Shown piece by piece: positions 12,882 to 49,596 of a stretch of DNA of 64,000 nucleotides. Position numbers and translations under genes: made by a program. The notes below the pieces were generated by a model. That model had not been told where the DNA came from and made no database searches. It saw only the letters and a program-made list of their open reading frames with translations. Source of the DNA: a virus; IMG/VR virus record IMGVR_UViG_3300008267_000007, positions 47,095 to 111,094 of that record; one strand, given 5' to 3'. Position 1 is the stretch's first letter; the number at the start of each line of letters is the position of its first letter.

Positions 12882-12911
12882 AATAAGTTTTAATATTAAA
12901 TATTTATAAAC

Positions 12912-32422: not shown

Positions 32423-33055
32423 ATGAAAAAAGAATTCTTAAAGAACATAATTAAAGAAAGCATAACTGATTATCTATCAGCTTTAAATGAAACTAATGCA
32501 GATCCTAGCGTACCTGAAGATTCAACCGATATGGCTTTGGATATGATGAAGAATGGATTACCTACCCAAACTAAAGAATCATTAACATCTACTCCCGGTA
32601 TGATGTTTGAAGATAAAGTAACTAAAGATAGTCATATCTATTTAGTTAAAAAAGCAATGAATGAGTCTACTGAAAAAGATTTAGTTGAGAAAAAATTATT
32701 ATTAGATCTAATTGGTGAAGGATTATATGAAGGTGCTTATTTAAATGAAGCTGCTGCTATGAATGCTGCTAAAAAAGCTCTTAAAGGTAGAGACACACAG
32801 ATTAAAGAAAATGTTAAAAGAGGTAATTCTAAGATATCTGAATTAGAGGATCAAATTGAAGACTTGAAAATTGACATTAAAGCTAAACAAAGTAAAGCTA
32901 TAGACGAACCTGGAATGAGAGATAGTTTAGTAGCTGATGTTGAGGGTTTAATGGCTAAATTAGATAAAAAAGAAGCAGTATTAGAAAAATTAAAAGCTGC
33001 TTTAGAAAAATCTGCACCTAAAAAAGAAAAGAAAGAAACTAAAGATGAAGAATAA
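32423..33055 (+). CDS. Putative internal head protein
   Basis: Late promoter; leader LKNIIKES...LNE; charged coiled coil. Confidence 0.65.
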   Translation: MKKEFLKNIIKESITDYLSALNETNADPSVPEDSTDMALDMMKNGLPTQTKESLTSTPGMMFEDKVTKDSHIYLVKKAMNESTEKDLVEKKLLLDLIGEGLYEGAYLNEAAAMNAAKKALKGRDTQIKENVKRGNSKISELEDQIEDLKIDIKAKQSKAIDEPGMRDSLVADVEGLMAKLDKKEAVLEKLKAALEKSAPKKEKKETKDEE

Positions 33056-34592
33056 TTATACTGAAATTTTATCTAAACATCTATATACTCTAATTAAAGA
33101 GGAACTTGAAGATGGTGAAGATGATCAAGCTAAGAAATATGCTGAGTATGATGTAGTATTAATTCCGGAAGATGTTAGTAAGGCTATTGAAGCCCTATCT
33201 AATGTTAAGAATTATGGACCTTATGCTCAAAATCTAAGAGATCCTAAAACCATTGAACAAGTATTTGGACCAACTACTCCTGCAACTAAAGGTAGAGTAG
33301 CTAAAGAAACATGGAATAAATTTTCAGAAGGTGAAAAACGTGCTAAGGTACTAGATATTAAGTCTAGAGCTCCTCAAGATTTTGCTTCTGTTGAAACACA
33401 ATTAAATCCTAACTTCCAAACTTGGTCTGAAGAGAATGAAGGGGATTTTATTGATTTCTTAATATCACTTCCTGGAGAATCCTTACCAATGAGTTTTTAT
33501 GGTAAGTATGGTGCTAATTTCTTTCTAACTAAAACGCCTGAAAATCTTAAAAAATATAGTGGTGTAATGTCTAAAGGTGTTCACTACACAGCGGATGAAA
33601 ATGAATTAACCTTTCCTAATAATTGGAATCCATTTAAATCTAAAGATTATCTTAAAAAAGTATTAAAACTTATAATGGATGCTGCTGGAGTAGAATATGT
33701 TTTTTCTGAACAAGAATCAGCAGAACAACCTAAAGAAAAAGCAACTAGTATTACTTCACCTGAAAAACCAGGTCAAATAAATTTCGTTAAAACATTCACT
33801 GATGATGAAGGCGAACCAGATAATGATCTAGCTTTAAAATTCAGAAAATTAGTACCAGATGAATTCAAATTTAAAACCAAAGTTGAAAACGGTAAGATTA
33901 CAGTAAGTGATATATCAGCATCTGAAAAGAAAGCTTTGATTAATGCCTCAATTAAATTCCAAGAAAAATATAGTAACCTTTACGAAAATACCAACACAAT
34001 GAAAGACCAATTAAGAACACAGTTAACTTCTATGATTAAAGAAGTTCTTTTAGAAAAAAAATTAACTCCTGCTCAACTTAAGAAAAGAAATAAAGAGGCA
34101 GAAGTTATTAAAAAGAAAAACCCTAAAATCGATAAAGGTGAAGCATATGCAATTGCTACTAAACATTTGAAAGAAGATAAAGGTGATACTTCATTAGATG
34201 ATATTGTAATGTCGTTTGAAGCTGCTCTTGATATTGAGGATGAAGCTAGACAAAAACAAGCTTTAGCTGCGGTTTATAATGAATTAAAAAATAAAGTAAA
34301 AGGTAAAATTAATAAAGCTGTTGATTGGGCTAAAGAAAAAGCACAGGCCTATGATGATAGTTTAGGAGAAGGTCTAAATGAACCTACCCAATTAGCTGCT
34401 ACTCAACAAAATAAAGCTAAATCTAATATAACTAATATTAAAACTTTTTCTCAAGCCGTTAAAGATTTGATAACTCAACTACAAGCAGGAGAAGAAGCAG
34501 ATTATGTAAACACCCCAACTTTTAAATCAGTTATGCAATATTTAGATAAAGCCATAGGGGCTAAAGACACCCCAAAAGCACCCACAAAATAA
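33045..34592 (+). CDS. Putative internal head polyprotein
   Basis: Leader LYTLIKEE; internal second leader MKDQLRTQLTSMIKEVLLE. Confidence 0.65.
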   Translation: MKNNYTEILSKHLYTLIKEELEDGEDDQAKKYAEYDVVLIPEDVSKAIEALSNVKNYGPYAQNLRDPKTIEQVFGPTTPATKGRVAKETWNKFSEGEKRAKVLDIKSRAPQDFASVETQLNPNFQTWSEENEGDFIDFLISLPGESLPMSFYGKYGANFFLTKTPENLKKYSGVMSKGVHYTADENELTFPNNWNPFKSKDYLKKVLKLIMDAAGVEYVFSEQESAEQPKEKATSITSPEKPGQINFVKTFTDDEGEPDNDLALKFRKLVPDEFKFKTKVENGKITVSDISASEKKALINASIKFQEKYSNLYENTNTMKDQLRTQLTSMIKEVLLEKKLTPAQLKKRNKEAEVIKKKNPKIDKGEAYAIATKHLKEDKGDTSLDDIVMSFEAALDIEDEARQKQALAAVYNELKNKVKGKINKAVDWAKEKAQAYDDSLGEGLNEPTQLAATQQNKAKSNITNIKTFSQAVKDLITQLQAGEEADYVNTPTFKSVMQYLDKAIGAKDTPKAPTK

Positions 34593-35149
34593 TGATTAAA
34601 TTAGCTGATATACTAAAAGAGATAGAGGAACCTGTAAATTTTTCAGCATTAGCAAATATAGATGATGTTGTAAAAAAGGAACTAGAAAAAGCACAAGAAG
34701 ACCAACCTGTAAATGAAGTAGTTGGTTTAACAGTAGCTGCATTTATTATAGCTTTACCAGGAATGATTAATGGTATATTTAGAATTATAAAAGCTATAAA
34801 AGATAAAGCTCCTCCAAGATTTAATCTATCTAAATCAGATGATAATCAATCTCATATTGATTATATAATTGATTTTACTAATAAAATGGATGAGTATCTT
34901 GACACTCCTTTTAGATTGATGTTAACCCCTTTTATAAAAGACGAAACAAAAAGAGATAAAGTAGCAAAACTTATAAAAGCTCTAACATTATTAATAATGT
35001 CATTGGGAATAGATATAACAAAATCCCCAAATATAATGGCCGTAGGTAAAGAATTAGCGGGTGATAAATTTACAGATTTAGCTTTTAGTAAAACAACAGC
35101 TGATTTAATAATTAAAGTAAAACCTATAATACAAAATATCTTCAAATAA
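34592..35149 (+). CDS. Putative internal head protein with hydrophobic segments
   Basis: Leader MIKLADILKE; hydrophobic helix after VNE. Confidence 0.65.
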   Translation: MIKLADILKEIEEPVNFSALANIDDVVKKELEKAQEDQPVNEVVGLTVAAFIIALPGMINGIFRIIKAIKDKAPPRFNLSKSDDNQSHIDYIIDFTNKMDEYLDTPFRLMLTPFIKDETKRDKVAKLIKALTLLIMSLGIDITKSPNIMAVGKELAGDKFTDLAFSKTTADLIIKVKPIIQNIFK

Positions 35150-35977
35150 ATGGATCAATCAGATTTAAGAAATATAATTAGAGAAACCATAGAACATATC
35201 TTTCAAGAAAGTAAAGTATCTTCTCTTCAAGAAAATGTTTTATTAACTGAAGATAAAGTCTCTAAAAACCTACAATACCATTTAGATAAAAACATCCCAT
35301 TACATGAGAATGCTTTTAGATATGGTACTGAAGCTCAATTATCTTTATTCAAAGAAGTAAGAAAACTTTATAATGAAGATAAACTGTATTTAAATCCTGA
35401 AGATAGGTGGTTAGTTGAAAACACTGATATTGGGAATTATGGTTTATTTGAAGGTCAATTTGTAGCTTTAGATGTACCAATGATTGAAGAGGATGTTAAT
35501 CCTACTGATACAATTACAATGGATGTTCCATTATTTATTCGCATGCTAGAATATGCTAGAGAGGATGCTAAGACCGATATGGACTTACATGATGTGGCAG
35601 AAAAAGCGCTTGCTTTGAGTACTACTGGCGCTACATTAACTATGGCGAATTATGAGAGTATTGCGGGTAAATCGTTGAATGAAGCTGAATATCAAGGTAA
35701 AGAAGTTAAATTAAGTAAACCAAAACGTGGTGGGTCTAAAAAATTCTATGTTTATGTTAAGGACGGAGACAAAGTAAAAAAAGTTTCATTTGGAGCAGCA
35801 GGTGGTGGTCAAAATTTAGCAGTTAAGATTAGAGATCCTAAAGCAAGAAGAGCATTCGCTGCTCGCCAAAATTGTGATAGAAAAAAAGATAAAACAACTC
35901 CTGGATATTGGTCTTGTAATATAGGTCGTTATTGGAAATCATTAGGTGGAGGTTCAAACTTTAGCGGATACTGGTAG
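35150..35977 (+). CDS. Putative internal head polyprotein with basic C-terminal domain (DUF6321-like)
   Basis: Leader LRNIIRE; KKFYVYVK...V.FG...AR..F.AR..C...YWSC. Confidence 0.7.
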   Translation: MDQSDLRNIIRETIEHIFQESKVSSLQENVLLTEDKVSKNLQYHLDKNIPLHENAFRYGTEAQLSLFKEVRKLYNEDKLYLNPEDRWLVENTDIGNYGLFEGQFVALDVPMIEEDVNPTDTITMDVPLFIRMLEYAREDAKTDMDLHDVAEKALALSTTGATLTMANYESIAGKSLNEAEYQGKEVKLSKPKRGGSKKFYVYVKDGDKVKKVSFGAAGGGQNLAVKIRDPKARRAFAARQNCDRKKDKTTPGYWSCNIGRYWKSLGGGSNFSGYW

Positions 35978-36360
35978 TGGATGATTTAAACGAAAAAAAG
36001 AAAAAACGTGATAGATGTTTACGTATAGCTGATCGAAAATATAATAAACCATCAGCTTATAAATCAGCTGCTGCTGAAAGATGTCGTCAGGGTGATATAT
36101 GGAAAGATTTAAAAGAAGCCTTTAAACAAGTTCTTCAAGAAGATGAATCACTTTATAAATGGCTTAAAAGACAAGGCCCACCAGGTAAAGAAGGAGGATG
36201 GGTAGATTGTAATACTTGTCGTAAAGTAGACGGTAAAACAAAATGTAAAGCATGTGGTAGGAAAAAAGGAGAAAAACGTGCAAAATATCCTTCATGCCGT
36301 CCTACACCTAAAAAATGTAAAGATCCTGGAAAGGGTAAAACTTGGGGAAAAACAAAATGA
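35977..36360 (+). CDS. Basic Cys-rich protein
   Basis: PSAY.S, W.D, CGR, YP.CRP motifs; GTG start. Confidence 0.75.
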   Translation: MDDLNEKKKKRDRCLRIADRKYNKPSAYKSAAAERCRQGDIWKDLKEAFKQVLQEDESLYKWLKRQGPPGKEGGWVDCNTCRKVDGKTKCKACGRKKGEKRAKYPSCRPTPKKCKDPGKGKTWGKTK

Positions 36361-36602
36361 TAAAACTACAAGACATATTAACAGAAAATTATGGTGGACC
36401 AGGTGAAATGGTTTTACCTCCAAACCATAAAGCAGGATTAAAAGTACCTAAAGGTGGTTCATGTTGTGCTAATTGTAAATGGTGGAAACAAGAAGAAAAA
36501 ATTTGTGTTAGTACTTATTATGTTGAGTGGGCGGGTACAAATACTATACCATATGCCGCTGATGAATATTGCACAAATTGGTGGGAACCTATAACTAAAT
36601 AA
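36357..36602 (+). CDS. Small Cys-rich protein with MIKL leader
   Basis: Start 36357 (ATGA overlap), MIKLQDILTE; C.NC.WW...C...C.WW. Confidence 0.75.
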   Translation: MIKLQDILTENYGGPGEMVLPPNHKAGLKVPKGGSCCANCKWWKQEEKICVSTYYVEWAGTNTIPYAADEYCTNWWEPITK

Positions 36603-36606
36603 TATC

Positions 36607-36951
36607 ATGATAAAATTAAACAACTTACTAAACGAAGCTACCCTCGACAAAATATTCCACATTAATGGAACTCTTATTGTTGATGATAATGCTAGAAACC
36701 AAAAAGACATCCTTTCAGATGTTCGAGCTTTACCTGGCATTACAGTGGTAAGAAACGTGGAGATGGATCAAGATCCTACCTCAAGATACTTTAGAAGTAG
36801 ATTAGAAGTAAAAATCGATCCCTATCCATACACAAAACAACATAAGTTCAATGGGGAAGAAACTATTCAAACCATTGCGGATAACATAAAAAAGGTACCT
36901 GGTGTAATAGGATTTAAACAAGATGGTGTTACTTATGTTACTGAAGTATAA
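36607..36951 (+). CDS. Hypothetical protein with MIKL leader (ferredoxin-like alpha/beta repeat)
   Basis: MIKLNNLLNE; two R/K.(L/V)PG(I/V) units. Confidence 0.75.
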   Translation: MIKLNNLLNEATLDKIFHINGTLIVDDNARNQKDILSDVRALPGITVVRNVEMDQDPTSRYFRSRLEVKIDPYPYTKQHKFNGEETIQTIADNIKKVPGVIGFKQDGVTYVTEV

Positions 36952-37218
36952 ATGAAACCCTATCAAGAAGTTATAGATAGAGACAATTCACGTTTACGTG
37001 AATTTAAAACTAATATAGATACTCATGAGTTAGTATGGCATAAAGATCAAAAAGATCGTCATATTACTATATTAGAAGGAGGAGGGTGGCAATTTCAAAT
37101 GGATAATGAATTGCCTTTAATTCTTCAAAAAGGAGATAATATATTTATACCTAAAGAGACCTACCATAGAGTAATAAAGGGTTCTTCTGATTTATTAATT
37201 AGCATAATAGAAACATAA
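36952..37218 (+). CDS. Cupin-domain protein
   Basis: WH.D...R...G.GW.FQ...GD..FIPK..YHR. Confidence 0.8.
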   Translation: MKPYQEVIDRDNSRLREFKTNIDTHELVWHKDQKDRHITILEGGGWQFQMDNELPLILQKGDNIFIPKETYHRVIKGSSDLLISIIET

Positions 37219-37953
37219 ATGAGTATTAAACAATACAAATTAAAAGATTTACCTGATAAAGTAAGGAACCCCCATACAAGTATTAGATTTAAAGGAGATA
37301 AAACAACCTATTCTAGCATATTTGTAACTTCTAGTAATAAGTCTGTTAGAGTGAAAAATGAACAAACTGGTGAAACCAGAACTTTCCCTATTAAAGATAT
37401 AATTAGAATAGGTAATGATGATATTCAAATTGTTAATGAGAGTTTAGAACTCCTTAAGCAAATTATCAAAGAGGAAATTGAGGATTTCAAATCTTCTGAA
37501 CCTCTTACATTTGAAGGTAACCCATTAGAATTTATCTTACAAAAATATGATACATTAGACGCTACAATGATTGATCTAATGACACCATCATTTAGAGATT
37601 ACATAACTGGGATATTCATTATAGCACCTAAACCAACCACTTTTAGAGTATTGCTTCATAATAACCAAGAATTCCATTTAATATACGGTCCTCAGGCTTA
37701 CATTGCTAGAATATCAGGTAAAAAATATAACTTAATTAATTTGTCTGAAGAGGAATTTGCTATCAAATCTATAGCCCAATTATTAGAGTTAGGTATGCCT
37801 CCAGGAAGTGAAGGTCCAGCTGAAGAGAATAAAAATGAAGCGGACTTACAAAGCAATTCCCAAGAAGAGACCCAAGCCGAAACACCACCTGAAGAAGAAA
37901 CACCTCCAGCTGATTTAAAAGAATCAATTAAAAAATTTAGAATAAAATTATAA
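37219..37953 (+). CDS. Hypothetical protein with internal leader-like motif
   Basis: VNESLELLKQIIKEEIE; acidic Pro-rich tail. Confidence 0.7.
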   Translation: MSIKQYKLKDLPDKVRNPHTSIRFKGDKTTYSSIFVTSSNKSVRVKNEQTGETRTFPIKDIIRIGNDDIQIVNESLELLKQIIKEEIEDFKSSEPLTFEGNPLEFILQKYDTLDATMIDLMTPSFRDYITGIFIIAPKPTTFRVLLHNNQEFHLIYGPQAYIARISGKKYNLINLSEEEFAIKSIAQLLELGMPPGSEGPAEENKNEADLQSNSQEETQAETPPEEETPPADLKESIKKFRIKL

Positions 37954-37958
37954 ATAAA

Positions 37959-37988
37959 TTTGGCTCCCCAAAGGAGCCTTATTATATT
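37959..37988 (+). promoter_or_regulatory. Palindromic promoter, copy 2
   Basis: TTTGGCTCC-CCAAA-GGAGCC-TTAT-TATATT. Confidence 0.75.
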
Positions 37989-38010
37989 ATACTAATTTAA
38001 CAAATCTGTT

Positions 38011-38796
38011 ATGAACAAAATTAATAAAAAGAGATTATTTTTTGACATCGAAACCAGCCCAAACATTGGATTTTTCTGGCAATCGGGATATAAATTAAAT
38101 ATACCATATGGTAATATTATTAAAGAGAGAGCCATTATTTGTATTTGTTATAAATGGGAAGGTGACGATAAGGTATATTCTTTAAATTGGGATAAAAACC
38201 AAGATGATAAAGAATTATTAGAAAAATTTATTACTGTAGCTAATGATGCCCATGAATTAGTAGGTCACAATGGGGATAAATTTGATTTGCCTTGGATTAG
38301 AACACGTTGTCTATTCCATGGTATTCCTTGTTTCCCTAATTACACTACAATTGATACTTTAAAACAAGCTCGTTCTAAATTTAGATTCAATAGTAATACT
38401 TTGAATTACATTGCCCAATATTTAAATGTTGGTGAAAAATCTGAAACTGGTGGATTTGATTTGTGGAAAGATATTGTATTAAACAATAGTCAAACTGCAA
38501 TGAAAACCATGGTAGATTATTGTAAAAATGATGTAGTAATTCTAGAGAAAGTATTCCACCATCTTAAAAATTATGTTCCTCATAAATCTCATTTTGGAGT
38601 ATTAGCAACAGGTGAAAAAACATCTTGTCCCGAATGTGGATCAGAAGATTTAAAACATTCTCAAACTCGTTATTCAGCCGCTGGAACTCCACGTGTTCAA
38701 ATGCAGTGTAGAGATTGTCACAAATACCACACAGTAGCTAATAGAACTTATGAAGCCATAACAGCCCAACAATTACAAGAGGGGGTAAAAAAGTAA
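38011..38796 (+). CDS. DnaQ/RNase H-like 3'-5' exonuclease with C-terminal Zn ribbon
   Basis: FDIET, HNGDKFD, IDTLK, YC.NDV; CPECG...CRDC. Confidence 0.88.
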   Translation: MNKINKKRLFFDIETSPNIGFFWQSGYKLNIPYGNIIKERAIICICYKWEGDDKVYSLNWDKNQDDKELLEKFITVANDAHELVGHNGDKFDLPWIRTRCLFHGIPCFPNYTTIDTLKQARSKFRFNSNTLNYIAQYLNVGEKSETGGFDLWKDIVLNNSQTAMKTMVDYCKNDVVILEKVFHHLKNYVPHKSHFGVLATGEKTSCPECGSEDLKHSQTRYSAAGTPRVQMQCRDCHKYHTVANRTYEAITAQQLQEGVKK

Positions 38797-38817
38797 TATT
38801 TATTTGTAAACCATACT

Positions 38818-39042
38818 ATGAAATTAAACGAATACCTAAAAGAAATACAAGAAGTCCAAATAAAAGTTGGAGATAGTTTTGCTTTAAGAGGAGATATTGG
38901 TATATTCAAAAAGGGAGAAACAGTGGAAGTTATTGATAAAAAATCTTATGGTAATGATATTGAATTAACATTGTCTAACAACAAAGGTAAAGAAGATAAG
39001 TTTTATTTAGATAAAAACGATGACTTTGAAGAACTAGGATAA
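38818..39042 (+). CDS. Small late protein with leader
   Basis: MKLNEYLKEIQE; SH3-like beta pattern. Confidence 0.7.
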   Translation: MKLNEYLKEIQEVQIKVGDSFALRGDIGIFKKGETVEVIDKKSYGNDIELTLSNNKGKEDKFYLDKNDDFEELG

Positions 39043-39497
39043 TGAAAAGATCAGAATTAAAAGAGATTATTAGAGAAGAGTTCAAAAGGATTCTTAGAGA
39101 ACAAGACCCTGAACAAGACCCTGAACTTAGTATTGGAGACAGAATAGAACCTGAACCCGAGGCTGAACCTTCACCTGAACCCGATAAACCAGAAACTGAA
39201 ATCCCCGAAGAACAACCACTTCAAAATATTTCTAAGTTAGATGCAGCTCAAAAGATAAGGGATACTAAAGGAAGAATGTTTACAGTTACTTTTATTAAAA
39301 AGTCAAATGGTCAAAAGAGGGTAATGAATGCCCGTTTAGGAGTTAAAGCATATCTAAGAGGAGGAGTATTACCTTACGATCCTAATACAAAAGGATTAAT
39401 TCCTTGCTATGATGTGCAGAAAAAAGATTACACAATGATTAACATCCCAGGTATTGTTAATTTAAAAGTTGGGGGAGTAGAATATAATGTAATATAA
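39042..39497 (+). CDS. Leader, PE-rich linker and SH3/WYL-like beta-barrel domain
   Basis: MKRSELKEIIREE; FTVTFIKK.NG..R.M.AR.GV...YD..K..Y. Confidence 0.72.
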   Translation: MKRSELKEIIREEFKRILREQDPEQDPELSIGDRIEPEPEAEPSPEPDKPETEIPEEQPLQNISKLDAAQKIRDTKGRMFTVTFIKKSNGQKRVMNARLGVKAYLRGGVLPYDPNTKGLIPCYDVQKKDYTMINIPGIVNLKVGGVEYNVI

Positions 39498-39518
39498 AAT
39501 AATAAACTAATTAATAAG

Positions 39519-39548
39519 TTTGGCTCCGTAAAGGAGCCTTCTTACATT
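39519..39548 (+). promoter_or_regulatory. Palindromic promoter, copy 3
   Basis: TTTGGCTCC-GTAAA-GGAGCC-TTCT-TACATT. Confidence 0.72.
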
Positions 39549-39568
39549 TAACCATAAAATTTAAACAT

Positions 39569-40867
39569 ATGAATAAACAAATTGTAATTGTAGGAGCTGG
39601 AGTAGCTGGTATAAATGCCGCTACTAAACTAGTAGATAACAATTTTAAGGGTAAAATAACAATTATCGATATGGGGAAAGACCCCCATAAACGATTGCCA
39701 AGTGAAGTAATGACTGGCATGTTAGGTGCTGGTGGTTGGTCTGATGGTAAATTAACGTACCACACAGCTATTGGTGGTCAATTATCAAAGTACTGCGGTG
39801 AAGAAAAAGCCATGGAGTTAATGGATCAAGTTATTACTAACTTTAAACGTTTCCACCCTAAACCTGAAGAAGTACAATGCTCAAATCCAGTTGCTGAACC
39901 TGATTTTATTAAACCACAATTTGGTTTACGTTTATTTCCTGTATGGCATGTTGGAACTGATTATTTATTAGAAATTGCTAAAAATTGGTACCAATATTTA
40001 GTTGATAATGGAGTTGAATTTGTATGGGAAACTAAAGTAACTGATATATTATTTAATATTAATGCAATTCATCTACAAGGAGGAAGTATTATAAAATATG
40101 ATGAACTTATATTTGGTGTAGGTAAATCAGGTATTGACTTTGGTAAAATATTAGCTGAAAAGTACGACTTACCAACTGAACCTAAATCAGTACAAATAGG
40201 TGTTCGCTTTGAAGCACCACAAAAACACTTCCAAAAATTGATTGATGTATCATATGACTTTAAATTATATAGAAAATTTGAAGACAAAGGAGTATCATTA
40301 CGTTCATTCTGTACTAACAATAATGCGGCGTATGTTGCAGTAGAAGAAACATACGGAAACTTTTCATATAATGGTCATGCTAAAAAAGATGAGAAGTATA
40401 GAAATGATATGACTAACTTTGGTATCATAATGGAGTTAAATGGAATTGAAGATCCATTTACTTGGAGTAGAGATTTAGTTAAACAATTGCAAATTGGTGG
40501 TAAGGGATTATATTACTCCCCATCACGCAAACCATCATTTACTTCAGAAGGAAATCATGTAGAAACAACTCAAATCGATAATGCTGCAATGCATGAAGTA
40601 AGAGAAGCATTTGAGGGGTATTTTAACTACATTGATAGCTTTATTGAAGGGATGAAAGAAGTATTTCCTACATTAAAAGACGATTGGGGTATGTACATAC
40701 CTGAAGTAAAATATCTATCTCCAGAACCACTTGTTGATTATACTAACTTAGCTTTGACTAAATATCCAAACGTGCATTTCGTTGGTGATGCTCTTTCTGC
40801 TAGAGGTATAACAGTAAGTGGAGCACAAGGGATTTATGTTGCCGAAGATATTTTGAGATACGAATAA
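39569..40867 (+). CDS. FAD-dependent oxidoreductase
   Basis: IVGAGVAG, G.LGAG.WSDGKL, GVRFE, RSFC.N, VGDA...RGI. Confidence 0.9.
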   Translation: MNKQIVIVGAGVAGINAATKLVDNNFKGKITIIDMGKDPHKRLPSEVMTGMLGAGGWSDGKLTYHTAIGGQLSKYCGEEKAMELMDQVITNFKRFHPKPEEVQCSNPVAEPDFIKPQFGLRLFPVWHVGTDYLLEIAKNWYQYLVDNGVEFVWETKVTDILFNINAIHLQGGSIIKYDELIFGVGKSGIDFGKILAEKYDLPTEPKSVQIGVRFEAPQKHFQKLIDVSYDFKLYRKFEDKGVSLRSFCTNNNAAYVAVEETYGNFSYNGHAKKDEKYRNDMTNFGIIMELNGIEDPFTWSRDLVKQLQIGGKGLYYSPSRKPSFTSEGNHVETTQIDNAAMHEVREAFEGYFNYIDSFIEGMKEVFPTLKDDWGMYIPEVKYLSPEPLVDYTNLALTKYPNVHFVGDALSARGITVSGAQGIYVAEDILRYE

Positions 40868-40886
40868 TTTTTATTATATTAAACAC

Positions 40887-41141
40887 ATGGAAGAACAAGA
40901 ACAAAAACAAGATTACAAATCAAGAACACTTACTACTGAAGACGGTAGAACAATTATATATTTTGACGGAAAACTCCATTCATGGGATGAACCGGCTCTT
41001 AAATACAAAAAAGAATTAAAAAAGAAAGATGAATATTATTTGTATGGTTTTCAATACACTAAAGAAGAATGGTTGGAAGCACGTAGAGACAGACACGGAG
41101 TACCACCAGAGAAAAACCCACAAGTAACATCAAGATTTTAA
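40887..41141 (+). CDS. Hypothetical protein
   Basis: GKLH.WD.PA...EYYLYG motif; TTTG-N19-TATATT upstream. Confidence 0.78.
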   Translation: MEEQEQKQDYKSRTLTTEDGRTIIYFDGKLHSWDEPALKYKKELKKKDEYYLYGFQYTKEEWLEARRDRHGVPPEKNPQVTSRF

Positions 41142-41149
41142 TAAATAAA

Positions 41150-41179
41150 TTTGGCTCCCATAGGGAGCCTTATTATATT
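41150..41179 (+). promoter_or_regulatory. Palindromic promoter, copy 4
   Basis: TTTGGCTCC-CATAG-GGAGCC-TTAT-TATATT. Confidence 0.75.
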
Positions 41180-41206
41180 GTATAAATAAAACTAATAAAA
41201 TAAGTT

Positions 41207-41737
41207 ATGAGAATAGGATTAACCGGTACCGTGTCTGTAGGCAAAACAACATTAGTTAATGCTTTAAAAGAATTACCACAATTTAAAGATTATCATTTTG
41301 CTACTGAACGTAGTAAATATTTAAGAGATTTAGGTATTCCATTAAACACTGATTCTACATTAAAGGGTCAAACTGTGTTTTTAGCTGAACGATGTGCAGA
41401 ATTGATTAATGAAAATTTAATTACTGATAGAACAGTTATTGATGTAATGGCATTTACTCAAAATGCTGAATCCATTGGTCTTACAGATAAAGAAAAATTT
41501 AGAAAGTATGCTTCTGATTTTATCAAAGAATATGATTATATTTTTTACATCTCTCCTGAAGGAGTAGAAATTGAAGATAATGGGGTGCGCACTATTGATG
41601 CTGAATATAGAGAACTAATTGATTCAACTATTAGACATTTTATCAATACATACAATGGCAAACTACAAAACTGCAAACAAATATCAGGCACTACAGAACA
41701 ACGCATCAAACAAATACTAGAAGTTATTTCTCTATAA
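41207..41737 (+). CDS. P-loop nucleoside/nucleotide kinase (NadR/AAA_28-like)
   Basis: GTVSVGKTT, DRT.ID, EDNGVR. Confidence 0.85.
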   Translation: MRIGLTGTVSVGKTTLVNALKELPQFKDYHFATERSKYLRDLGIPLNTDSTLKGQTVFLAERCAELINENLITDRTVIDVMAFTQNAESIGLTDKEKFRKYASDFIKEYDYIFYISPEGVEIEDNGVRTIDAEYRELIDSTIRHFINTYNGKLQNCKQISGTTEQRIKQILEVISL

Positions 41738-41773
41738 TATTTATATCAAAACCATAACTTAAAAAATAAAAAA

Positions 41774-42421
41774 ATGAACATTAATAATGATTTTGATTTA
41801 AAGAAAGCAAAGAATTTCCTTTTAACTGAAAATTTTGACGCTTCTTACTTACAAGAAGAAGATTTAGATGAGAACGAAGAAGTTTCTCTAGAAGAAATGG
41901 CTAAACTAACTAGTGCAGGAGGTGAATATACTCCACTAGGACAAAAAGTAGCAGCTATTATTAAAGCACAACCTGAATTAGAAAAATCAGCATTGTTGAA
42001 AGTTCTTAATACCGATCCTGAAATTGCTAAAATGTTAGATGATAGCGAAGAAGAATTACATCAAAATCAAACAAATAAATTTGCTGCTTTAGTTCGTGGT
42101 TCAAGAGAATTAGGACAAAGAGGTAGAAAAGCAGATCCAAACAAACCTGCTGCTGAACCAAAAGAGCCAAGAGTTGCTAAAGCCCCGGGAGAAAAGAGAA
42201 TTAAAATCACTACTCCTAAATCTGAACCAACAACAGACGAAACACCAATCGATAATACAATTGGATTAGGTCAAGATGAGATGATTAAAGAAAAACGTAA
42301 ACTTGAAGCTGAAAGAATGGAAGCAGCTAAGGCTTATAAAGCTGGTGATGAGTCAGTTTTACCTAAGATGAAAGAATTAACTGCTCAAATTAACAAATTG
42401 AATAAAAAATTAGGAGTATAA
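41774..42421 (+). CDS. Putative internal head protein
   Basis: Late promoter; FDLKKAKNFLLTE leader; acidic then basic (QRGRK). Confidence 0.65.
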   Translation: MNINNDFDLKKAKNFLLTENFDASYLQEEDLDENEEVSLEEMAKLTSAGGEYTPLGQKVAAIIKAQPELEKSALLKVLNTDPEIAKMLDDSEEELHQNQTNKFAALVRGSRELGQRGRKADPNKPAAEPKEPRVAKAPGEKRIKITTPKSEPTTDETPIDNTIGLGQDEMIKEKRKLEAERMEAAKAYKAGDESVLPKMKELTAQINKLNKKLGV

Positions 42422-42439
42422 AAATTCCTAAATTTAGTT

Positions 42440-44044
42440 ATGTCTGAAATACAACCACAACTTCCTTTAAAGGAAATTATAAAACAAGAGTGGGTCCGCT
42501 GTTCACAGGACCCAGTCTATTTTATGAAAAAATACTATTGGATCCAACACCCACAACGGGGTAGGATCCAATTTAATTTATACCCATTTCAAGAAAAGGT
42601 ACTTTACCAACTTCAAAAGAATGAGTATACAATCATAAACAAATCTCGTCAGTTAGGTATATCAACATTAGCCTCGGCCTATGCTTTGTGGTTAATGATA
42701 TTTAATAAAGACCGAAATGTTTTATGTATTGCTACCAAGCAGGAAACTGCTAAAAATATGGTTACTAAGGTACGTTTTGCCTATGAATCATTACCCAAAT
42801 GGTTAAAATCAGGAGATAAACCATCTGAAAATAATAAATTATCATTAAAGTTAAATAATGGTTCTCAGATTAAAGCAGTAGGTGCAACCGCAGATGCTGG
42901 TCGATCAGAAGCCGTTTCTTTTCTTATTATTGATGAGGCTGCTTTTATTGAGGGTATTGATGAAATTTTTGCTTCGGCTCAACAGACCTTAGCTACTGGA
43001 GGACAATGTCTTGCTTTATCTACACCTTATGGTACAGGTAACTGGTTTCATAAATCCTTTACTAAAGCCCAAAATAAAGAAAATAAATTTGTTCCTTTAT
43101 CCTTACCATGGACCGTTCATCCTGAACGAAACCAACAATGGAGAGATGACCAAAATGAAATTCTAGGATTACGTCACGCCGCACAAGAGTGTGATTGCGA
43201 TTTTAGTACATCTGGAGATACAGTAATTGAACCCGATATGCTTAATTTCTTAGAATCCGCATTCACATCAGATCCTATAGAAAGAAGAGGACCAGAAGGT
43301 GCTTTATGGCTTTGGGAACAACCAGATTATAGTAAAGACTATATGATAGTAGCCGACGTTGCTAGAGGTGATGGAAGTGACTACTCAGCATTCCATATTT
43401 TTGATGTTGAAGCTGCTAAACAAATAGGTGAATATAAGGCCCAAGTTCAAACAAAAGACTATGCCAATATTTTATTTTCAATAGCAACAGAATATAATGA
43501 TGCTTTATTAGTAGTAGAAAACGCTAATGTTGGTTGGAGTGTTTTAGAACATTTGATAGAAAGAGGATATAGAAATCTATATTATTCATCTAAAGCCGAT
43601 ACTACAATGGGTGCTAATGAAAACCAATTAGCTAGAATGGAGAATGGGCAGGGTATGGTACCTGGATTTACAACATCTCAAAAAACTCGTCCATTATGTG
43701 TATCAAAGTTGATATCATATATTCAAGAAAAATCTGTTACAATACAGTCTAAAAGGTTATTAGATGAATTAAGAACTTTTGTGTGGAAACACGGTAAAGC
43801 TCAATCTCAAAATGGCTATAATGATGACTTAGTGATGGCATTCAGTATTGGTTTATTTTTACGTGATACCGCGCTAAGATTTAGACAACAGGGTATGGAT
43901 TTAACCAGAGCTACATTAGGTAGTTTTCATTCTACTAAGCAACAGGCCCCTGGAGTATTTTCATACAATCCCCAAAATCAAAATCCATATCAAATTGATG
44001 ATGGTATGGGGGGTAAAGAAAATATAGATTGGCTTTTAGGTTAA
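42440..44044 (+). CDS. terL: Terminase large subunit (gp17-like)
   Basis: KSRQLGIST Walker A, IIDEAAF Walker B, LSTP.G, DVARGDG.DYSA, DDLVMA. Confidence 0.96.
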   Translation: MSEIQPQLPLKEIIKQEWVRCSQDPVYFMKKYYWIQHPQRGRIQFNLYPFQEKVLYQLQKNEYTIINKSRQLGISTLASAYALWLMIFNKDRNVLCIATKQETAKNMVTKVRFAYESLPKWLKSGDKPSENNKLSLKLNNGSQIKAVGATADAGRSEAVSFLIIDEAAFIEGIDEIFASAQQTLATGGQCLALSTPYGTGNWFHKSFTKAQNKENKFVPLSLPWTVHPERNQQWRDDQNEILGLRHAAQECDCDFSTSGDTVIEPDMLNFLESAFTSDPIERRGPEGALWLWEQPDYSKDYMIVADVARGDGSDYSAFHIFDVEAAKQIGEYKAQVQTKDYANILFSIATEYNDALLVVENANVGWSVLEHLIERGYRNLYYSSKADTTMGANENQLARMENGQGMVPGFTTSQKTRPLCVSKLISYIQEKSVTIQSKRLLDELRTFVWKHGKAQSQNGYNDDLVMAFSIGLFLRDTALRFRQQGMDLTRATLGSFHSTKQQAPGVFSYNPQNQNPYQIDDGMGGKENIDWLLG

Positions 44045-44076
44045 AAAATTAATATTTATAATTATAATAAAATTTT

Positions 44077-46005
44077 ATGGTAGATACATCATTTTTTGGT
44101 AGATTACAACGATTATTCTCAACAGACGTTATAATAAGAAACGTTGGGGGTAACCAATTAAAAGTAATGGATACAGATCGTATCCAACAACTTGGTACTA
44201 TCCAAACAAACTCTCTCTATGACAGATACAATAAAGTATACACTACTACAGGTGGTTTAAACTTTAACTTCAATAATGATACTTCATATCCAACAACACG
44301 TATTCAACTTTATACTGACTATGAATTGATGGATAGTGATTCTATTATTGCTTCTACATTAGATATCTTAGCTGATGAGACATGCTTGAGAAATGATATG
44401 GGAGAAGTATTACAAATACGTTCTTCTGATGAAACTATACAAAAAATACTTTATAACTTATTTTACGATGTATTAAACATTGAGTTTAATCTTTGGTCTT
44501 GGACTCGTAATATGTGTAAGTATGGTGACTTCTATCTAAAATTAGAAATATCAGAAAAATTTGGAGTATATGGTGTAATACCATTCTCATCTTACTCTAT
44601 CATTAGGTTAGAGGGTAGAAATCCAGAACGCCCACAAGAAGTAAAATTTAAATACGACCCTACTTTCTCATCTCAACAGTCTACAACGGGTCCTCAAAAC
44701 ATTTCTCAATATAACCAAAACCGAGATACTAATATTGAGTTTGATAATTTCGAAATGGCCCACTTCCGATTATTATCGGATTTTAACTATTTACCATATG
44801 GTAGATCATTTATTGAACCCGCTCGTAAGATTTTTAAACAATTAACATTAATGGAAGATGCGATGTTAATACATCGTATTGTTAGAGCACCTGAAAAACG
44901 TACATTCTTTGTTAATGTGGGTAATATTCCACCTAATGAGGTAGAAAATTTCATGCAGCGTACTATTAATAAAATGAAAAAAACACCTTATGTTGATCCA
45001 AACACTGGTGAATACAATTTGAAGTACAACATGCAGAATATTCTTGAGGATTTTTATATTCCTGTAAGGGGTGGTGATGCTACAACTAGAATTGAAACTA
45101 CAAAAGGTTTAGATTATACTGCTATTGAAGATGTTAATTACCTAAAAGATAAATTATTCGCTGCTTTAAAAGTACCAAAAGCTTACTTTGGATATGAAAA
45201 AGACTTAACAGGTAAAGCTACATTAGCCGCTGAAGATATTAGATTTGCTCGTACAGTAGAAAGACTTCAACGTATATTAATATCAGAATTAACAAAAATA
45301 GCTTTAGTTCACTTATATGCACAAGGGTATGATGGAGAATCATTAACTAATTTTGATTTATCTTTAACTGTTCCTTCTATTATATATGAACAAGAAAAAA
45401 TAGCATTATTTAAGGAAAAGGCATCATTAGCCGTTGAATTACTTCAAAATAAAATAGTACCATCTGATTGGGTTTATGATCATATTTTTCAATTTAGCGA
45501 AGATCAATTTGATGAATACCGAGACTTAATGATCGAAGACGCTAAACGCAAATTCCGAATAGACCAAATAGAAACTGAAGGGAATGACCCCTATAAAACC
45601 GGAGAAGCATACGGTACACCACACGCCTTAGCATCACTTTATGGTCCAGGTAGATATCCAGGAACCGAAGGTACTCCTAAAGGATATGATGAAAGGGGTG
45701 ATACTTATCCTGATCAAGTATTAGGTCGTCCTAAAGAAAAGGCATCAACAATGGGTACTCAAGATAGTGCTTTAGGTAAAGATAGATTAGGTAGAGATGC
45801 TATGAGAAAAGATGATTCTGAGACTAAGGGATTTAAAACTGCCCATAAAGGTGGTTCACCATTAGCATTAGAAAATATGAATGCTCAAACTGTGTATCAC
45901 CAAATGTCAAACTCTTTGAAAAATATGTTTCCTAAACAAAAAGTTAAATTGTTTGAAGAAAGTAATTTATTAAATGAGGATAACCTCTTAAAGGAAGATA
46001 AATAA
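44077..46005 (+). CDS. gp20: Portal protein (T4 gp20-like)
   Basis: EDAMLIHRI.RAPE.R.F, EDF.IP.RG, L..ALKVP. Confidence 0.95.
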   Translation: MVDTSFFGRLQRLFSTDVIIRNVGGNQLKVMDTDRIQQLGTIQTNSLYDRYNKVYTTTGGLNFNFNNDTSYPTTRIQLYTDYELMDSDSIIASTLDILADETCLRNDMGEVLQIRSSDETIQKILYNLFYDVLNIEFNLWSWTRNMCKYGDFYLKLEISEKFGVYGVIPFSSYSIIRLEGRNPERPQEVKFKYDPTFSSQQSTTGPQNISQYNQNRDTNIEFDNFEMAHFRLLSDFNYLPYGRSFIEPARKIFKQLTLMEDAMLIHRIVRAPEKRTFFVNVGNIPPNEVENFMQRTINKMKKTPYVDPNTGEYNLKYNMQNILEDFYIPVRGGDATTRIETTKGLDYTAIEDVNYLKDKLFAALKVPKAYFGYEKDLTGKATLAAEDIRFARTVERLQRILISELTKIALVHLYAQGYDGESLTNFDLSLTVPSIIYEQEKIALFKEKASLAVELLQNKIVPSDWVYDHIFQFSEDQFDEYRDLMIEDAKRKFRIDQIETEGNDPYKTGEAYGTPHALASLYGPGRYPGTEGTPKGYDERGDTYPDQVLGRPKEKASTMGTQDSALGKDRLGRDAMRKDDSETKGFKTAHKGGSPLALENMNAQTVYHQMSNSLKNMFPKQKVKLFEESNLLNEDNLLKEDK

Positions 46006-46045
46006 AGTTAATATTTATAATTAGTAGTTAACTATATAAAACATA

Positions 46046-46900
46046 ATGGCTAATATTAAGCATAATAAATATCGTAATACTGGTATCCTATTTGAACTTC
46101 TTGTAAGAAAAATTACAGCTGATACTATGTCTAACCAAGACTCCAAAGCTGTATCTTTAATTAAGAAATACTTTGTTAATACTGAATTATCAAAAGAAAA
46201 CAAATTATATCAATCTATATCAAGAGTTCAAAATATTAGTGAGGCCAAAGCTGAATCTATTATTTCTACTATATTAGAAATAAATAAATCTTTAAATCAA
46301 GTTAAATTATCTAAAGAAAAGTTTAATTTGATAAAAGAGATTAAGGCTAATTTTGACATAGATGATTTTTTTAAAGCGAAAATTAGTAACTACAAGTTAT
46401 TATCTTCAACTTATACTTTATTAGAGGCAAATTTGTTTCCTTCACACCATGTGGATACTATAATTAATTCTAAGATGAACATCTTAGAACATATAGCTCA
46501 GTCACAACTTGTAAAAGAAATACAACCTACAGTTAGTGAATTTGAGTTATTAGACAAAGGAACTCGCGCATTAGTTTATAAATTGATGTTGGAAAAATTC
46601 AATACCAAATTTGAAGTATTATCTGATGATCAAAAAGATGTGTTAAAAGAATACATTAATAACATCTCTAATACTACTAATCTTAAAAAGTATGTAGATG
46701 TTAAGTTTACATCGTTAAAGGAATCTCTTTTAAAATTATTACCTAAAATAGAGGATGCTACTATTAAAATTAAAGTAAATGAGACCATAAATCTTATTAA
46801 CCCTATTCTAGAATCTAAAACATTAAAAGACGATAATATTATTGCTCTATTACAATATCAGGAACTGCATAGTGAGTTAAAAAAGATTCATAATGGATAA
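46046..46900 (+). CDS. Hypothetical head-module protein
   Basis: After portal with own late promoter. Confidence 0.75.
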   Translation: MANIKHNKYRNTGILFELLVRKITADTMSNQDSKAVSLIKKYFVNTELSKENKLYQSISRVQNISEAKAESIISTILEINKSLNQVKLSKEKFNLIKEIKANFDIDDFFKAKISNYKLLSSTYTLLEANLFPSHHVDTIINSKMNILEHIAQSQLVKEIQPTVSEFELLDKGTRALVYKLMLEKFNTKFEVLSDDQKDVLKEYINNISNTTNLKKYVDVKFTSLKESLLKLLPKIEDATIKIKVNETINLINPILESKTLKDDNIIALLQYQELHSELKKIHNG

Positions 46901-47603
46901 AGATAAATTAAGAGAATTAGTAAAACAGTGTATAGAAGAAATGTCTGCCACTGCGGGTGCTGGGGGGTTTATGGGCAGAGTAATGCTTAAAAAACCCAAA
47001 TATGAAAGCACCACTAAAGCTTTTACTCGTAATCCTGCTCGTCCGGTAACTGATCAAGATAAAAACTCACCTGCTGGATTTGAAACCATGCCTGATTCTG
47101 CTAAAACTTATATTAAAGGAGGATTTAGAGCAATTAAACCCAAAGAGAGAATTGATGCCAAAGATTTATGGAAGGGCCAACATTTAGAAGAAAAAATTGC
47201 TGTCCTAACTCCCAAAGCATTCAGAAAATCTAAAAAACAACATGAGACTTCTAAATCAGGACATGAAGATTTACCTAATCTCGATAAATATTTTGAACTA
47301 GTGAAATTTAAAATAGTTGACTCAAAAAAAGAAGAAGAACAACTTAATGAGGTTCGTTATTCTCAATTTAAAAATGAGACTAAAAACAGAAAACCCCAAG
47401 AGCAATTGCATATGGGTGTTAAAGAAATCCAACGTAAGTTAGAGGAGATTAATAAATTAGTTGATTTTACTTCTCGTATGAAAACTGAATTAAAAGGTGA
47501 TGAGGATCAAATGAACTATTTAAAACGTACTCATAATGCGTTGTTTAGAATAAATGAAAAAATCCAAGAAATTAATAATAAAATTAAAGGTTTAACTGAA
47601 TAA
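46893..47603 (+). CDS. Putative prohead core/internal protein
   Basis: Leader LRELVKQCIEE; multiple L-x-E sites. Confidence 0.65.
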   Translation: MDKDKLRELVKQCIEEMSATAGAGGFMGRVMLKKPKYESTTKAFTRNPARPVTDQDKNSPAGFETMPDSAKTYIKGGFRAIKPKERIDAKDLWKGQHLEEKIAVLTPKAFRKSKKQHETSKSGHEDLPNLDKYFELVKFKIVDSKKEEEQLNEVRYSQFKNETKNRKPQEQLHMGVKEIQRKLEEINKLVDFTSRMKTELKGDEDQMNYLKRTHNALFRINEKIQEINNKIKGLTE

Positions 47604-47746
47604 TGGCAGCAAAAGTAAAATCGAATTCAACCGGGGTAAAAACCGAAGTCTCGAAAGTTAAAAGACCTGGTGTTCATGCCAAGTGTAAAACATCTAAGTT
47701 GAAAAGTTCTAAAAATTATAAAAAACTTTATAAAGGACAAGGATAA
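47603..47746 (+). CDS. 47-aa basic protein ending YKGQG, not in ORF track
   Basis: TAATG coupling; Lys-rich; C-terminal Y(K/R)GQG motif seen in small phage proteins. Confidence 0.75.
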   Translation: MAAKVKSNSTGVKTEVSKVKRPGVHAKCKTSKLKSSKNYKKLYKGQG

Positions 47747-47764
47747 AAAATAATATTTATACAC

Positions 47765-48979
47765 ATGACAGTTCAAAATTTATATACTCAATATTTAGAT
47801 GGTAAAGTTACCAAAGCTAAATTTCTTTACGAGGTGCGTAGAGATCAAAATCTTACTATGATTTCACATCATAATAATTTTGATGATACCGTTAAAATCC
47901 TTAAAAACAAAAACATCATCTCAGAAAAAGCTTCAAAAGAATCTACTGGGAAACAAGAAGTAGATATCATAGCTAAAACTATTGATATGGTTAACCCATA
48001 TGAGTATTCTAGAGGTATGAAATATGAACTTGAAATGGTAGATGTTCCTACTAGAACTGATTTAACTGAAGAAGAAGTACTTAAAGCACAGAAAAAAGTA
48101 TTAGCTAACCTAACTAAAAATCCACAATTTTATTTTGATAAATTGAATGGTAAAGGTGAAGTAAGTGATAAATGGATTGAAACTACTAAGAAAAACATCG
48201 ATGCTATTGGTAAAGGAAAAGCTGCTAAACTTATTAGAGAAGGTGAAATGTCAGATAGAGTAATAGCTAGAAAAGCTATTAACTTATATGATAAAGGGGA
48301 AGAATTATACTTACAAGGCAAAACCCAAGAAGCTGAAAAGTATAGACAACAAGCTTTACAAATTGCTGGTGAAGTAGGAATGGGAGAAGCTGAATTTCCT
48401 AAATATCAAAATCATATTAGAGAAGGATACGAAAATGATGGTCTAGTAAAAGAAGATCAACAAAATGCTATTTTTAAAAAATACGCTCAAGCTACAGGTA
48501 TTCCAATTGATAATTTAAAATCAATGGTTAGAGACGCTAAGGAAAAACAAATAGAAGAACATGGGTCACGTTTTGATAGAGTAGCTGATGTTAATGCTGA
48601 TTCTAGTCCAATAAGTGAAGATATAGATTTAGGTCATCAAGATAACGAACCTCACATGATCAAAGCTGAATTATATTTAATTGCTAAACAAGCAACTGAA
48701 TTATATAAAACTATTGATGCCATAGACAACATGGGAGAAATTGATTTTCCTCACTGGTGGCAAGCAAAAATTGTCTTAGCTAAAAACTATTTAACTGGAG
48801 CTAAAGATTATTTAGACGGAGCACTATCCGTAGGTAATGAAGACGGGGAAATTGAAGAGGCTATTGCTTTAAAAGATAAAGCTGGTAACACCCAATATGC
48901 TAAAGATTCAACTGAAGCTACAAATATAGAAAGAGCAGCTAGAACCAAAGGTGTAATCTTAACAAAAACTACAGTATAA
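47765..48979 (+). CDS. Putative internal head polyprotein
   Basis: Modules separated by ISE, IRE, VKE and IEE sites; immediately before the protease. Confidence 0.65.
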
Positions 48980-49596
48980 TGAGTAAATCATTATTAATAG
49001 AATACGCTCTATTCACCCCTAAATCCGCAGTATTAACTGAGGGTAAGGGTGATAGAAATTTAATGGTTGAAGGTGTAATTCAAAGAGCTGACTCTAAAAA
49101 CCAAAATGGTAGAGTTTACCCTAAAGATATTCTTGAAAGGGAAGTTGAAAAATATATCCAAGGACCAGTTACCGAAAATAGAGCTTTAGGTGAATTAGAT
49201 CACCCAGAATCTATGGTAATTAACCTAAAAAATGTATCCCACAACATCAAAAAATTATGGTGGAATGGAGATGATTTAATGGGTAAAGTGGAAGTACTAC
49301 CAACACCTTCAGGTAACATTTTAAAAGAATTGTTTTTAAATAAAATTACTGTAGGTATTTCATCTCGTGGTATGGGCTCTGTTCAATCATTAGGAGAAGG
49401 TACAGTAGAAGTACAAGATGATTTTGAATTGCTTTGTTGGGATTTTGTTTCAACTCCATCAACACAAGGGGCTTTTATGACACCAACAGGATTAAGTGAG
49501 GGATATAAACCCCAACATAATAACAAATACTCAAAAATAAATACATTAGTATCAGACATCATCTGTTCCCAATCAGGTGTATGTTGTATAAGATAA
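48979..49596 (+). CDS. gp21: Prohead core protease (T4 gp21-like)
   Basis: NQNGRVYP, LGELDHP, SH.I, TP.G, GISSRG.G, DFV..PS. Confidence 0.95.
   Translation: MSKSLLIEYALFTPKSAVLTEGKGDRNLMVEGVIQRADSKNQNGRVYPKDILEREVEKYIQGPVTENRALGELDHPESMVINLKNVSHNIKKLWWNGDDLMGKVEVLPTPSGNILKELFLNKITVGISSRGMGSVQSLGEGTVEVQDDFELLCWDFVSTPSTQGAFMTPTGLSEGYKPQHNNKYSKINTLVSDIICSQSGVCCIR

Follow-up and report, generated by a model that had tools for sequence, protein, structure and literature searches.

Strings of swappable modules with protease-motif linkers in a T4-like phage genome: probable polyproteins that load capsid cargo

Can a phage assemble the proteins that it packs into its head from interchangeable parts, joined within single reading frames at motifs of the kind that a prohead protease cuts? 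The question is raised by a 64,000-nucleotide stretch of the IMG/VR virus record IMGVR_UViG_3300008267_000007 (hereafter the window; bases 47095-111094, the 3′ 64 kb, of one 111,094-bp contig; about 31% G+C). In it, a first-pass annotation had read five open reading frames (ORFs) as concatenated small proteins, separated by hydrophobic-x-Glu motifs and released during head maturation by a protease like gp21 of phage T4. The five, named here by their first base, are ORFs 33045 (33045-34592; 515 amino acids, aa), 35150 (35150-35977; 275 aa), 37219 (37219-37953; 244 aa), 46893 (46893-47603; 236 aa) and 47765 (47765-48979; 404 aa). These ORFs, as well as the leaders, cassettes, repeats and the neighboring leader-bearing, protease, scaffold-like and capsid genes described below, lie on the + strand, and the motifs, blocks and internal leaders quoted for the five are all present at the positions given for them. 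Our analysis indicates that several of these proteins are strings of small, swappable modules with protease-motif linkers, and that they are probably polyproteins that load capsid cargo.

The source is recognizable from its sequence as a T4-like, Immutovirus-related myovirus, with Flavobacterium phage immuto (59%), Microcystis phage Mel-JY01 (50%) and Rhodothermus phage RM378 (36%) as its nearest isolates by capsid protein. When the head module was compared by megablast with 50,697 phage records, nothing matched, and relatives were found at the protein level only. They comprise 80 IMG/VR loci around portal homologs, 4 around ORF 33045 and 23 around a 33045-related protein, to which a full HMMER search with ORF 33045 against 1.8 billion representatives added the database side; overall, the homolog set holds about 110 metagenomic loci and 69 database proteins. 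Across this set the homologs are not collinear, as the modular reading predicts: blocks occur alone, in another order or in other genes.

The 275-aa product of ORF 35150 consists of a leader helix (residues 3-18), block A (35-114), block B (115-178) and a basic, Cys-containing block C (179-275), with junctions LTE34, MIEE111-114 and LNE178 ending at nucleotides (nt) 35251, 35491 and 35683. Among relatives, A and C are found together, C is found alone in 106-aa proteins, and B is found within proteins of the 46893, 47765 and 33045 types. In the syntenic contig L087, block B is gone from the 35150 ortholog (218 aa, A+C) and now stands at the C-terminus of the 33045 ortholog, while in L082 a 135-aa cassette has been inserted in 35150 between duplicated junctions.

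Similar exchanges are seen in two ORFs that occupy the position of T4 gp67 and gp68. ORF 46893 encodes a leader (residues 1-16), a segment (17-100), a variable cassette (101-153; nt 47193-47351) and a conserved C-module (154-236), separated by IEE16, LEE100 and LNE153. Relatives differ in what fills the slot between a conserved D-x-x-L-W and LNE153: L003, L010 and L017 have nothing there, L002 has the window's 53-aa cassette, L027 and L075 have block B of 35150, and L006 has a Cys-rich cassette. ORF 47765 is made up of an N-domain (1-159), a cassette (160-220; nt 48242-48424), segments covering 221-285, a mobile block (286-365; nt 48620-48859) and a tail (366-404), with sites IRE159, IRE220, VKE230, IEE265, ISE285 and IEE365. 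The cassette that runs from IRE159 to IRE220 is missing in L002 and has other sequence in L003 and L005. It is flanked by a 12-nt direct repeat, of which the left copy (48232-48243) encodes the I-R-E-G junction and the right copy lies at 48415-48426; the window contains no more than these two (0.02 expected). The block 286-365 is also present in 33045-type proteins and in immuto gp079 and, when searched alone, it retrieves proteins of 123-132 aa that have their own N-terminal leader ending I-x-N-E. Block C of 35150 and this block therefore both do what had been expected of true modules, namely occur by themselves.

ORF 33045 is a mosaic in which a leader (residues 1-19) and an N-domain (about 20-314) are followed by an internal leader, from Met319 to LLE337 (nt 33999-34055), and by modules at 338-377, 378-442 and 447-515. 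Its sites are LYE314, the IKE333/LLE337 end of the Met319 leader, LKE377 and LNE446. The N-domain, of about 270 aa, is without internal sites (0 vs 4.4 expected, P 0.008). A junction does precede the last module, as the first-pass annotation had it, but the conserved one is LGE442, four residues upstream of LNE446, and LNE446 is better replaced by it. Three database proteins from the HMMER search begin exactly at Met319, and other proteins join segments of 33045 to the 47765 block 286-365 or to block B of 35150. In ORF 37219, an extra N-domain (1-74) stands ahead of an internal leader (75-85; nt 37441-37473), preceded by VNE74 and ending in IKE85, and of the body that follows it. Ten relatives align to this ORF only from residue 75-77 on, which in most of them corresponds to residue 3-5 of an independent protein about 157 aa long; elsewhere, the 37219 body forms the start of a 634-aa protein and lies near the end of immuto gp079. 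In these alignments the internal leaders of 33045 and 37219 are the N-termini of shorter relatives.

Immuto gp079 (L001 7105-9630, 841 aa) is itself a very long, polyprotein-like ORF in a cultured relative. It contains the 47765 block and a diverged second copy of it, a segment rich in Cys, and the 37219 body behind an internal leader, and its segments are set apart by hydrophobic-x-Glu sites.

Gap placement by automated pairwise alignment is too ambiguous for distant pairs, and cassette indels were therefore taken from close relatives only. Indels of at least 12 aa numbered 21 in 14 ortholog pairs for 35150, 12 in 6 for 46893, 8 in 3 for 47765, 9 in 10 for 37219 and 26 in 15 for the scaffold-like ORF, compared with zero in 16-25 pairs each for terminase, major capsid protein (MCP), protease and ORF 46046, and 2 short C-terminal indels in 25 pairs for the portal. 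Five of the six cleanly aligned indels of at least 50 aa extend from site to site. The starts of high-scoring segment pairs (HSPs) coincide with sites, whereas their ends do not.

Conservation of the junctions was scored at the aligned position in each homolog in which the junction is internal, with homologs grouped by upstream context (P16-P5, <40% identity). A site was counted when a hydrophobic-x-Glu ended within ±2 residues, for which the background at a random internal position is 0.115. Counted over contexts that are not fully independent phylogenetically, 12 of 18 proposed junctions are conserved across distinct upstream contexts (p 0.014 to 1e-14). The site is present in 14 of 17 contexts for LNE178, 16/17 for LNE153, 15/28 for IEE114, 5/5 for LGE442, 5/6 for IEE265, 4/4 for IKE85, 8/17 for ISE285, 6/10 for LKE377, 4/6 each for LTE34 and IEE365, 3/4 for LLE337 and 4/9 for LYE314. 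Many of the sites on the first-pass list, including LNE178 and LNE153, are among these conserved-context junctions, and the proposal that modules are gained and lost there is borne out by the site-to-site indels and by the move of block B in L087.

Predicted structures are supportive, not decisive, in that low-confidence linkers tend to fall at the junctions. The AlphaFold2 model of 35150 (23-row alignment; mean predicted local distance difference test score, pLDDT, 64) has low-confidence segments at 16-34, 109-120, 174-178 and 217-221, three of which hold junction sites (28/34, 113/114 and 178). In the model of 47765 (mean pLDDT 72) such segments lie at 56-65, 131-137, 147-162, 219-228, 266-298 and 356-364, and the sites at 159, 220, 230, 265, 285 and 365, together with ISE54, are in them or at most 2 residues away. 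Altogether, 12 of 22 sites coincide with low-confidence segments, as against about 5 expected; boundaries of predicted domains, like those of indels, are located at x-x-E sites, as the modular reading had supposed.

The leaders are the candidates for bringing such modules into the head. Eleven ORFs of the genome, compared with 1.5 expected, have a leader-like heptad with a terminal Glu in their first 12 residues, and most of the 11 fall in 32423-39497. Three of them have 10-residue leaders with L4, I/L7, L8 and E10. In the T4 capsid-targeting sequence (CTS), hydrophobic residues at positions 4, 7 and 8 together with Glu at position 10 determine targeting and processing (PMC9026906), and the sequences of T4 ipII and ipIII confirm that both start with that 10-residue leader. 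On this pattern of residues, the leaders form a real class that fits the T4 CTS, in which exchange of the position-10 Glu for Asp blocks cutting. Its members include a 210-aa ORF at 32423-33055 (N-terminal leader with site IKE12; 9 [IL]xE vs 4.0), a 185-aa ORF at 34592-35149 whose 10-residue, T4-CTS-like leader ends in LKE10, two small ORFs at 36357-36602 and 36607-36951, each with a 10-residue leader ending in L-x-E, and two ORFs at 38818-39042 and 39042-39497. The leader-bearing ORFs gave no PHROG or Pfam match except to PHROGs of unknown function, and showed no homology to T4 IPI, IPII, IPIII or Alt. The C-domain of ORF 39042 has a leaderless 88-aa paralog at genome bases 45374-45640, outside the window (36% identity over 64 aa, E 3e-11), and the pair offers a natural control for the targeting hypothesis. 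A further ORF, 12912-13397 (161 aa), has a long multi-site leader (6 [IL]xE vs 1.6 expected) and lies amid tail and baseplate genes, which would extend the leader proteins beyond the 32-39 kb cluster.

The enzyme presumed to process these proteins is encoded directly after ORF 47765, in a T4-type head module that also contains the large terminase (42440-44044) and the portal (44077-46005). Here the order of portal, 46046, 46893, 47765, protease, scaffold and MCP parallels T4 genes 20, 67, 68, 21, 22 and 23. The prohead protease (48979-49596), of the T4 gp21-like family S77, matches PF03420 (112.4 bits, cutoff 27; E 2.6e-32) and phrog_207 (1.5e-55). It shares 35% identity with T4 gp21 across 150 aa, and its His-Pro and Ser-Ser-Arg-Gly motifs, taken to be the catalytic His and Ser motifs, line up with those of gp21. 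The gp23-like MCP (50766-52412) has a propeptide (50766-50950) with four hydrophobic-x-Glu sites, at residues 10, 36, 52 and 61, that are kept in 22 of 22 relatives. Three of the four correspond to sites of the T4 gp23 propeptide in order and flanking residues, and the matched T4 sites include LTE65, directly before the mature N-terminus. That four protease-type sites are conserved, and not one, suggests that the 61-residue propeptide is perhaps cut into pieces. Given the identity and shared motifs with gp21 and the alignment of the MCP sites with those of gp23, the protease likely has T4-like specificity, cutting after Glu in L/I-x-E. Between protease and MCP lies an acidic, scaffold-like ORF (49776-50729; 24% Glu), a gp22 analog by position, which has many indels in relatives and 21 [IL]xE sites compared with 11.3 expected.

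Gain, loss and transfer of modules at hydrophobic-x-Glu junctions is thus supported by the non-collinear homologs, the conservation of the junctions, the indel pattern, the positions of the linkers and the shorter relatives. We consider it probable, by a fair but not a wide measure, that the ORFs encode mosaic precursors of prohead-core and internal-head (cargo) proteins, which are targeted by leaders and cut at the junctions. ORFs 33045, 35150 and 37219 may be counted as head proteins because they have leaders and share modules with genes of the head module. Cleavage at the junctions appears the most economical account in view of the gp21-type protease, the T4-like MCP sites, the T4-pattern leaders and the exchange of modules between the upstream cluster and the genes in the gp67/gp68 position.

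Targeting, cleavage, packaging and the fate of the pieces we infer to run as follows. Each precursor would be a string of independently folding cassettes, mostly of 40-100 aa and in one case of about 270 aa, between which flexible linkers end in hydrophobic-x-Glu, the motif cut by T4-type S77 prohead proteases. An amphipathic leader of 10-20 residues, N-terminal and, in 33045 and 37219, also internal, would bring the precursor into the scaffolding core; once the shell closes, the protease would strip the leaders and cut the junctions. Some pieces may then remain with the DNA, the basic, Cys-containing block of 35150 being an example, and others may be expelled, like the fragments of T4 gp22, gp67 and gp68. 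Since a cassette would move with one flanking junction, it could be inserted, deleted, replaced or moved between genes and leave its neighbors undisturbed. It is tempting to go further and to see in these ORFs plug-and-play cargo, that is, true polyproteins in which a module with its own protease site, and often its own targeting helix, can move between genes and phages by way of the junction-coding sequence and still be packaged and released. This bolder reading we offer tentatively, at somewhat less than an even chance.

The candidate for DNA binding is not confined to ORF 35150. The adjacent ORF 35977-36360 (127 aa) and block C (35683-35977) are both very basic and Cys-containing, and both may be DNA-binding internal proteins. 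Foldseek matches to block C include uncultured-phage proteins labeled ChaB and XkdF.

Several observations weigh against cleaved precursors. When [IL]xE counts were compared with shuffled sequences, 35150 (8 vs 2.8, z 3.6) and 46893 (8 vs 3.2, z 3.1) were enriched, as were the scaffold, the protease, 32423 and 12912, and T4 gp21 substrates fall in the same z range (gp22 4.8, gp21 3.1, gp68 2.4); ORFs 33045 (8 vs 6.0), 37219 (4 vs 5.0) and 47765 (8 vs 5.4) were not above chance. Sites are not generally avoided within modules (18 [ILMV]xE vs 23.7 expected), the exception being the N-domain of 33045. ORF 46046-46900, a 284-aa frame that follows the portal and precedes 46893, keeps its collinearity in 75 relatives and is free of large indels despite 13 hydrophobic-x-Glu motifs; it has no leader and belongs to no known family, and provides a negative control for the motif within the window. 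Because sites inside modules are not avoided and 46046 is motif-rich yet collinear, the motif alone is not diagnostic. Plain motif enrichment, not significant in three of the five ORFs and matched by the equally motif-rich 46046, was dropped as a criterion. Six of the junctions on the first-pass list, IRE159, IRE220, VKE230, LEE100, LNE446 and VNE74, did not reach significance in the context test, and Pro directly follows LNE446; IRE159/IRE220 and LEE100/LNE153 nevertheless bound cassettes that are missing from close relatives. The structural coincidence is only weakly specific, because linkers are Glu-rich in general and 38% of other x-x-E motifs fall there too, and the rows of the folding alignments were cut at HSP ends, which may depress confidence at junctions. 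Homology is likewise silent: 46893 and 47765 had no PHROG or Pfam match and no sequence homology to gp67 or gp68, nor did PHROG and Pfam reveal any homology to T4 internal proteins (IPs). Finally, the upstream cluster is interspersed with non-head genes of nucleotide metabolism and replication (NT5C, exonuclease, dehydrogenase, AAA_28).

Searches for function added little on either side. Pfam and PHROG assigned no function to any module and no Pfam domain to any of the five ORFs; Foldseek, run with the 35150 model against viral models, returned uncharacterized phage proteins only, with poor global superpositions, and the ESM Atlas gave unnamed viral clusters of module size only, a lead and not evidence.

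Even if the junctions are cut, the upstream cassettes might be multi-cut propeptide or scaffold material that is degraded or expelled, so that at most one module, usually the C-terminal one, survives. ORFs 46893 and 47765 do occupy the gp67/gp68 slot, cleavage reduces T4 core proteins to short fragments and acts at more than one site in SPN3US propeptides (PMC5694885, PMC10052503), 47765 has acidic cassettes rich in helix that resemble a scaffold, and only block C of 35150 is basic and DNA-binding-like. We nonetheless regard this as rather unlikely: the 35150 blocks A and B and the 47765 block 286-365 show conservation and fold confidently in the models, and in relatives they are found C-terminally or alone with their own leader, which would not be expected of throw-away spacers. 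If, on the other hand, nothing is cut internally, these would be ordinary multidomain proteins that lose at most a leader, and the hydrophobic-x-Glu at their junctions would reflect a helix end or a linker, or would have been left behind by recombination through short repeats that encode the junctions. The Glu-rich linkers, the lack of site avoidance inside modules and of enrichment in three of five ORFs would all suit such proteins, and the 12-nt repeat at one cassette means that microhomology alone could set the boundaries. What makes this improbable in our eyes is that a hydrophobic P3 and Glu at P1 persist while P2 and all of the upstream sequence vary, in up to 17 unrelated contexts, that the MCP propeptide sites common to T4 conserve this motif too, and that internal copies of the targeting leader directly follow junctions.

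The internal leaders could also mark internal translation starts, or fusions made in sequencing or assembly, in which case 33045 and 37219 would really be two genes each. Met319 of 33045 does align with residue 1 of the three database proteins, and T4 is annotated with internal starts in genes 17 and 21. The fused forms, however, recur in independent contigs at 79-84% identity, 33045 in L082, L083, L084 and, behind another N-domain, L087, and 37219 in L082; 37219 has no start codon at residue 75; and an internal start adds a product but does not abolish the long one. There is very little to recommend a division into two genes, and assembly artefact was ruled out by the recurrence of the fused forms in independent contigs.

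Two observations lie apart from the modular genes. Upstream of the window, genome bases 12614-14547 appear to encode GroES-like and GroEL-like proteins, judged by their N-terminal sequences alone, and ORF 30142-31140 yields only sub-threshold Pfam matches, in its C-terminal third (DUF3920, 1.6e-4; DUF6055).

How proteins injected along with phage DNA contribute to host takeover and anti-defense is poorly charted, and in T4 each injected protein is a separate gene with a targeting leader. Should precursors cut at cassette junctions be confirmed, capsid cargo could diversify fast without new promoters or start sites, and a simple sequence rule, a leader plus hydrophobic-x-Glu junctions, would predict packaged proteins in uncultured aquatic phages. 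Natural design rules for putting foreign proteins in phage heads might also be gained. Were the cassettes truly plug-and-play, they would be the protein-level equivalent of a gene-cassette array and would allow quick turnover of injected proteins in the arms race with the host. The idea is directly testable, as the cultured Flavobacterium phage immuto bears the same kind of ORFs.

Diverse proteins behind a capsid-targeting leader have a precedent in T4 and its varied internal proteins (PMC9026906, PMC3012670). In the literature on T4 IPs, IP loci, multi-cut propeptides and polyvalent proteins, we found no account of genes that exchange internal cassettes at prohead-protease junctions and carry repeated internal leaders. 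The gp21-processed T4 IPs (IPI, IPII, IPIII and Alt) likewise begin with a leader of some 10 residues that ends in hydrophobic-x-Glu and has hydrophobic residues at 4, 7 and 8, with diverse, unrelated bodies behind this common leader and an S77 protease gene in the head module. They differ in having one leader and one body each, whereas here there are at least 10 leader ORFs, internal leaders, and chained modules separated by sites. The genes for T4 gp22, gp67 and gp68 likewise lie between portal and protease or beside the scaffold, and their acidic, helical products have many L/I-x-E motifs; T4 cuts these core proteins into small fragments. In contrast to gp67 and gp68, ORFs 46893 and 47765 are 3-5 times longer, and they trade folded cassettes with genes beyond the head module.

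More distant systems share single features. In the giant phages SPN3US, phiKZ and 201phi2-1, a gp21-related protease cuts after Glu at several positions per head protein, and propeptides exceed 100 residues (111-254 residues in SPN3US) (PMC10052503). The sites there, however, follow A/S/G-x-E, and the published descriptions mention one mature product, from the C-terminus, and report no exchange of cassettes at the cut sites. Polyvalent proteins are multi-module, highly mosaic and presumed to be packaged and delivered, perhaps with processing by a peptidase (Iyer et al., 2017, PMC5512222). With 3-6 modules per ORF, recombined among relatives, the proteins described here resemble that class, whose members have 2-15 domains in extensively mosaic arrangement. 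Polyvalent proteins, however, are large, with recognizable enzymatic or anti-restriction domains and often their own metallopeptidase (MPTase), whereas the modules of the present ORFs are small, belong to no Pfam family and have junctions that fit a prohead protease. Finally, the T-even IP loci and PeSL cassettes shuffle at the level of genes and turn over their cargo rapidly by means of short conserved flanks (PMC2839356, PMC4122927). There, whole genes with promoter-like flanks are exchanged; in the phage studied here, exchange takes place inside ORFs, at junctions that encode protease-type sites.

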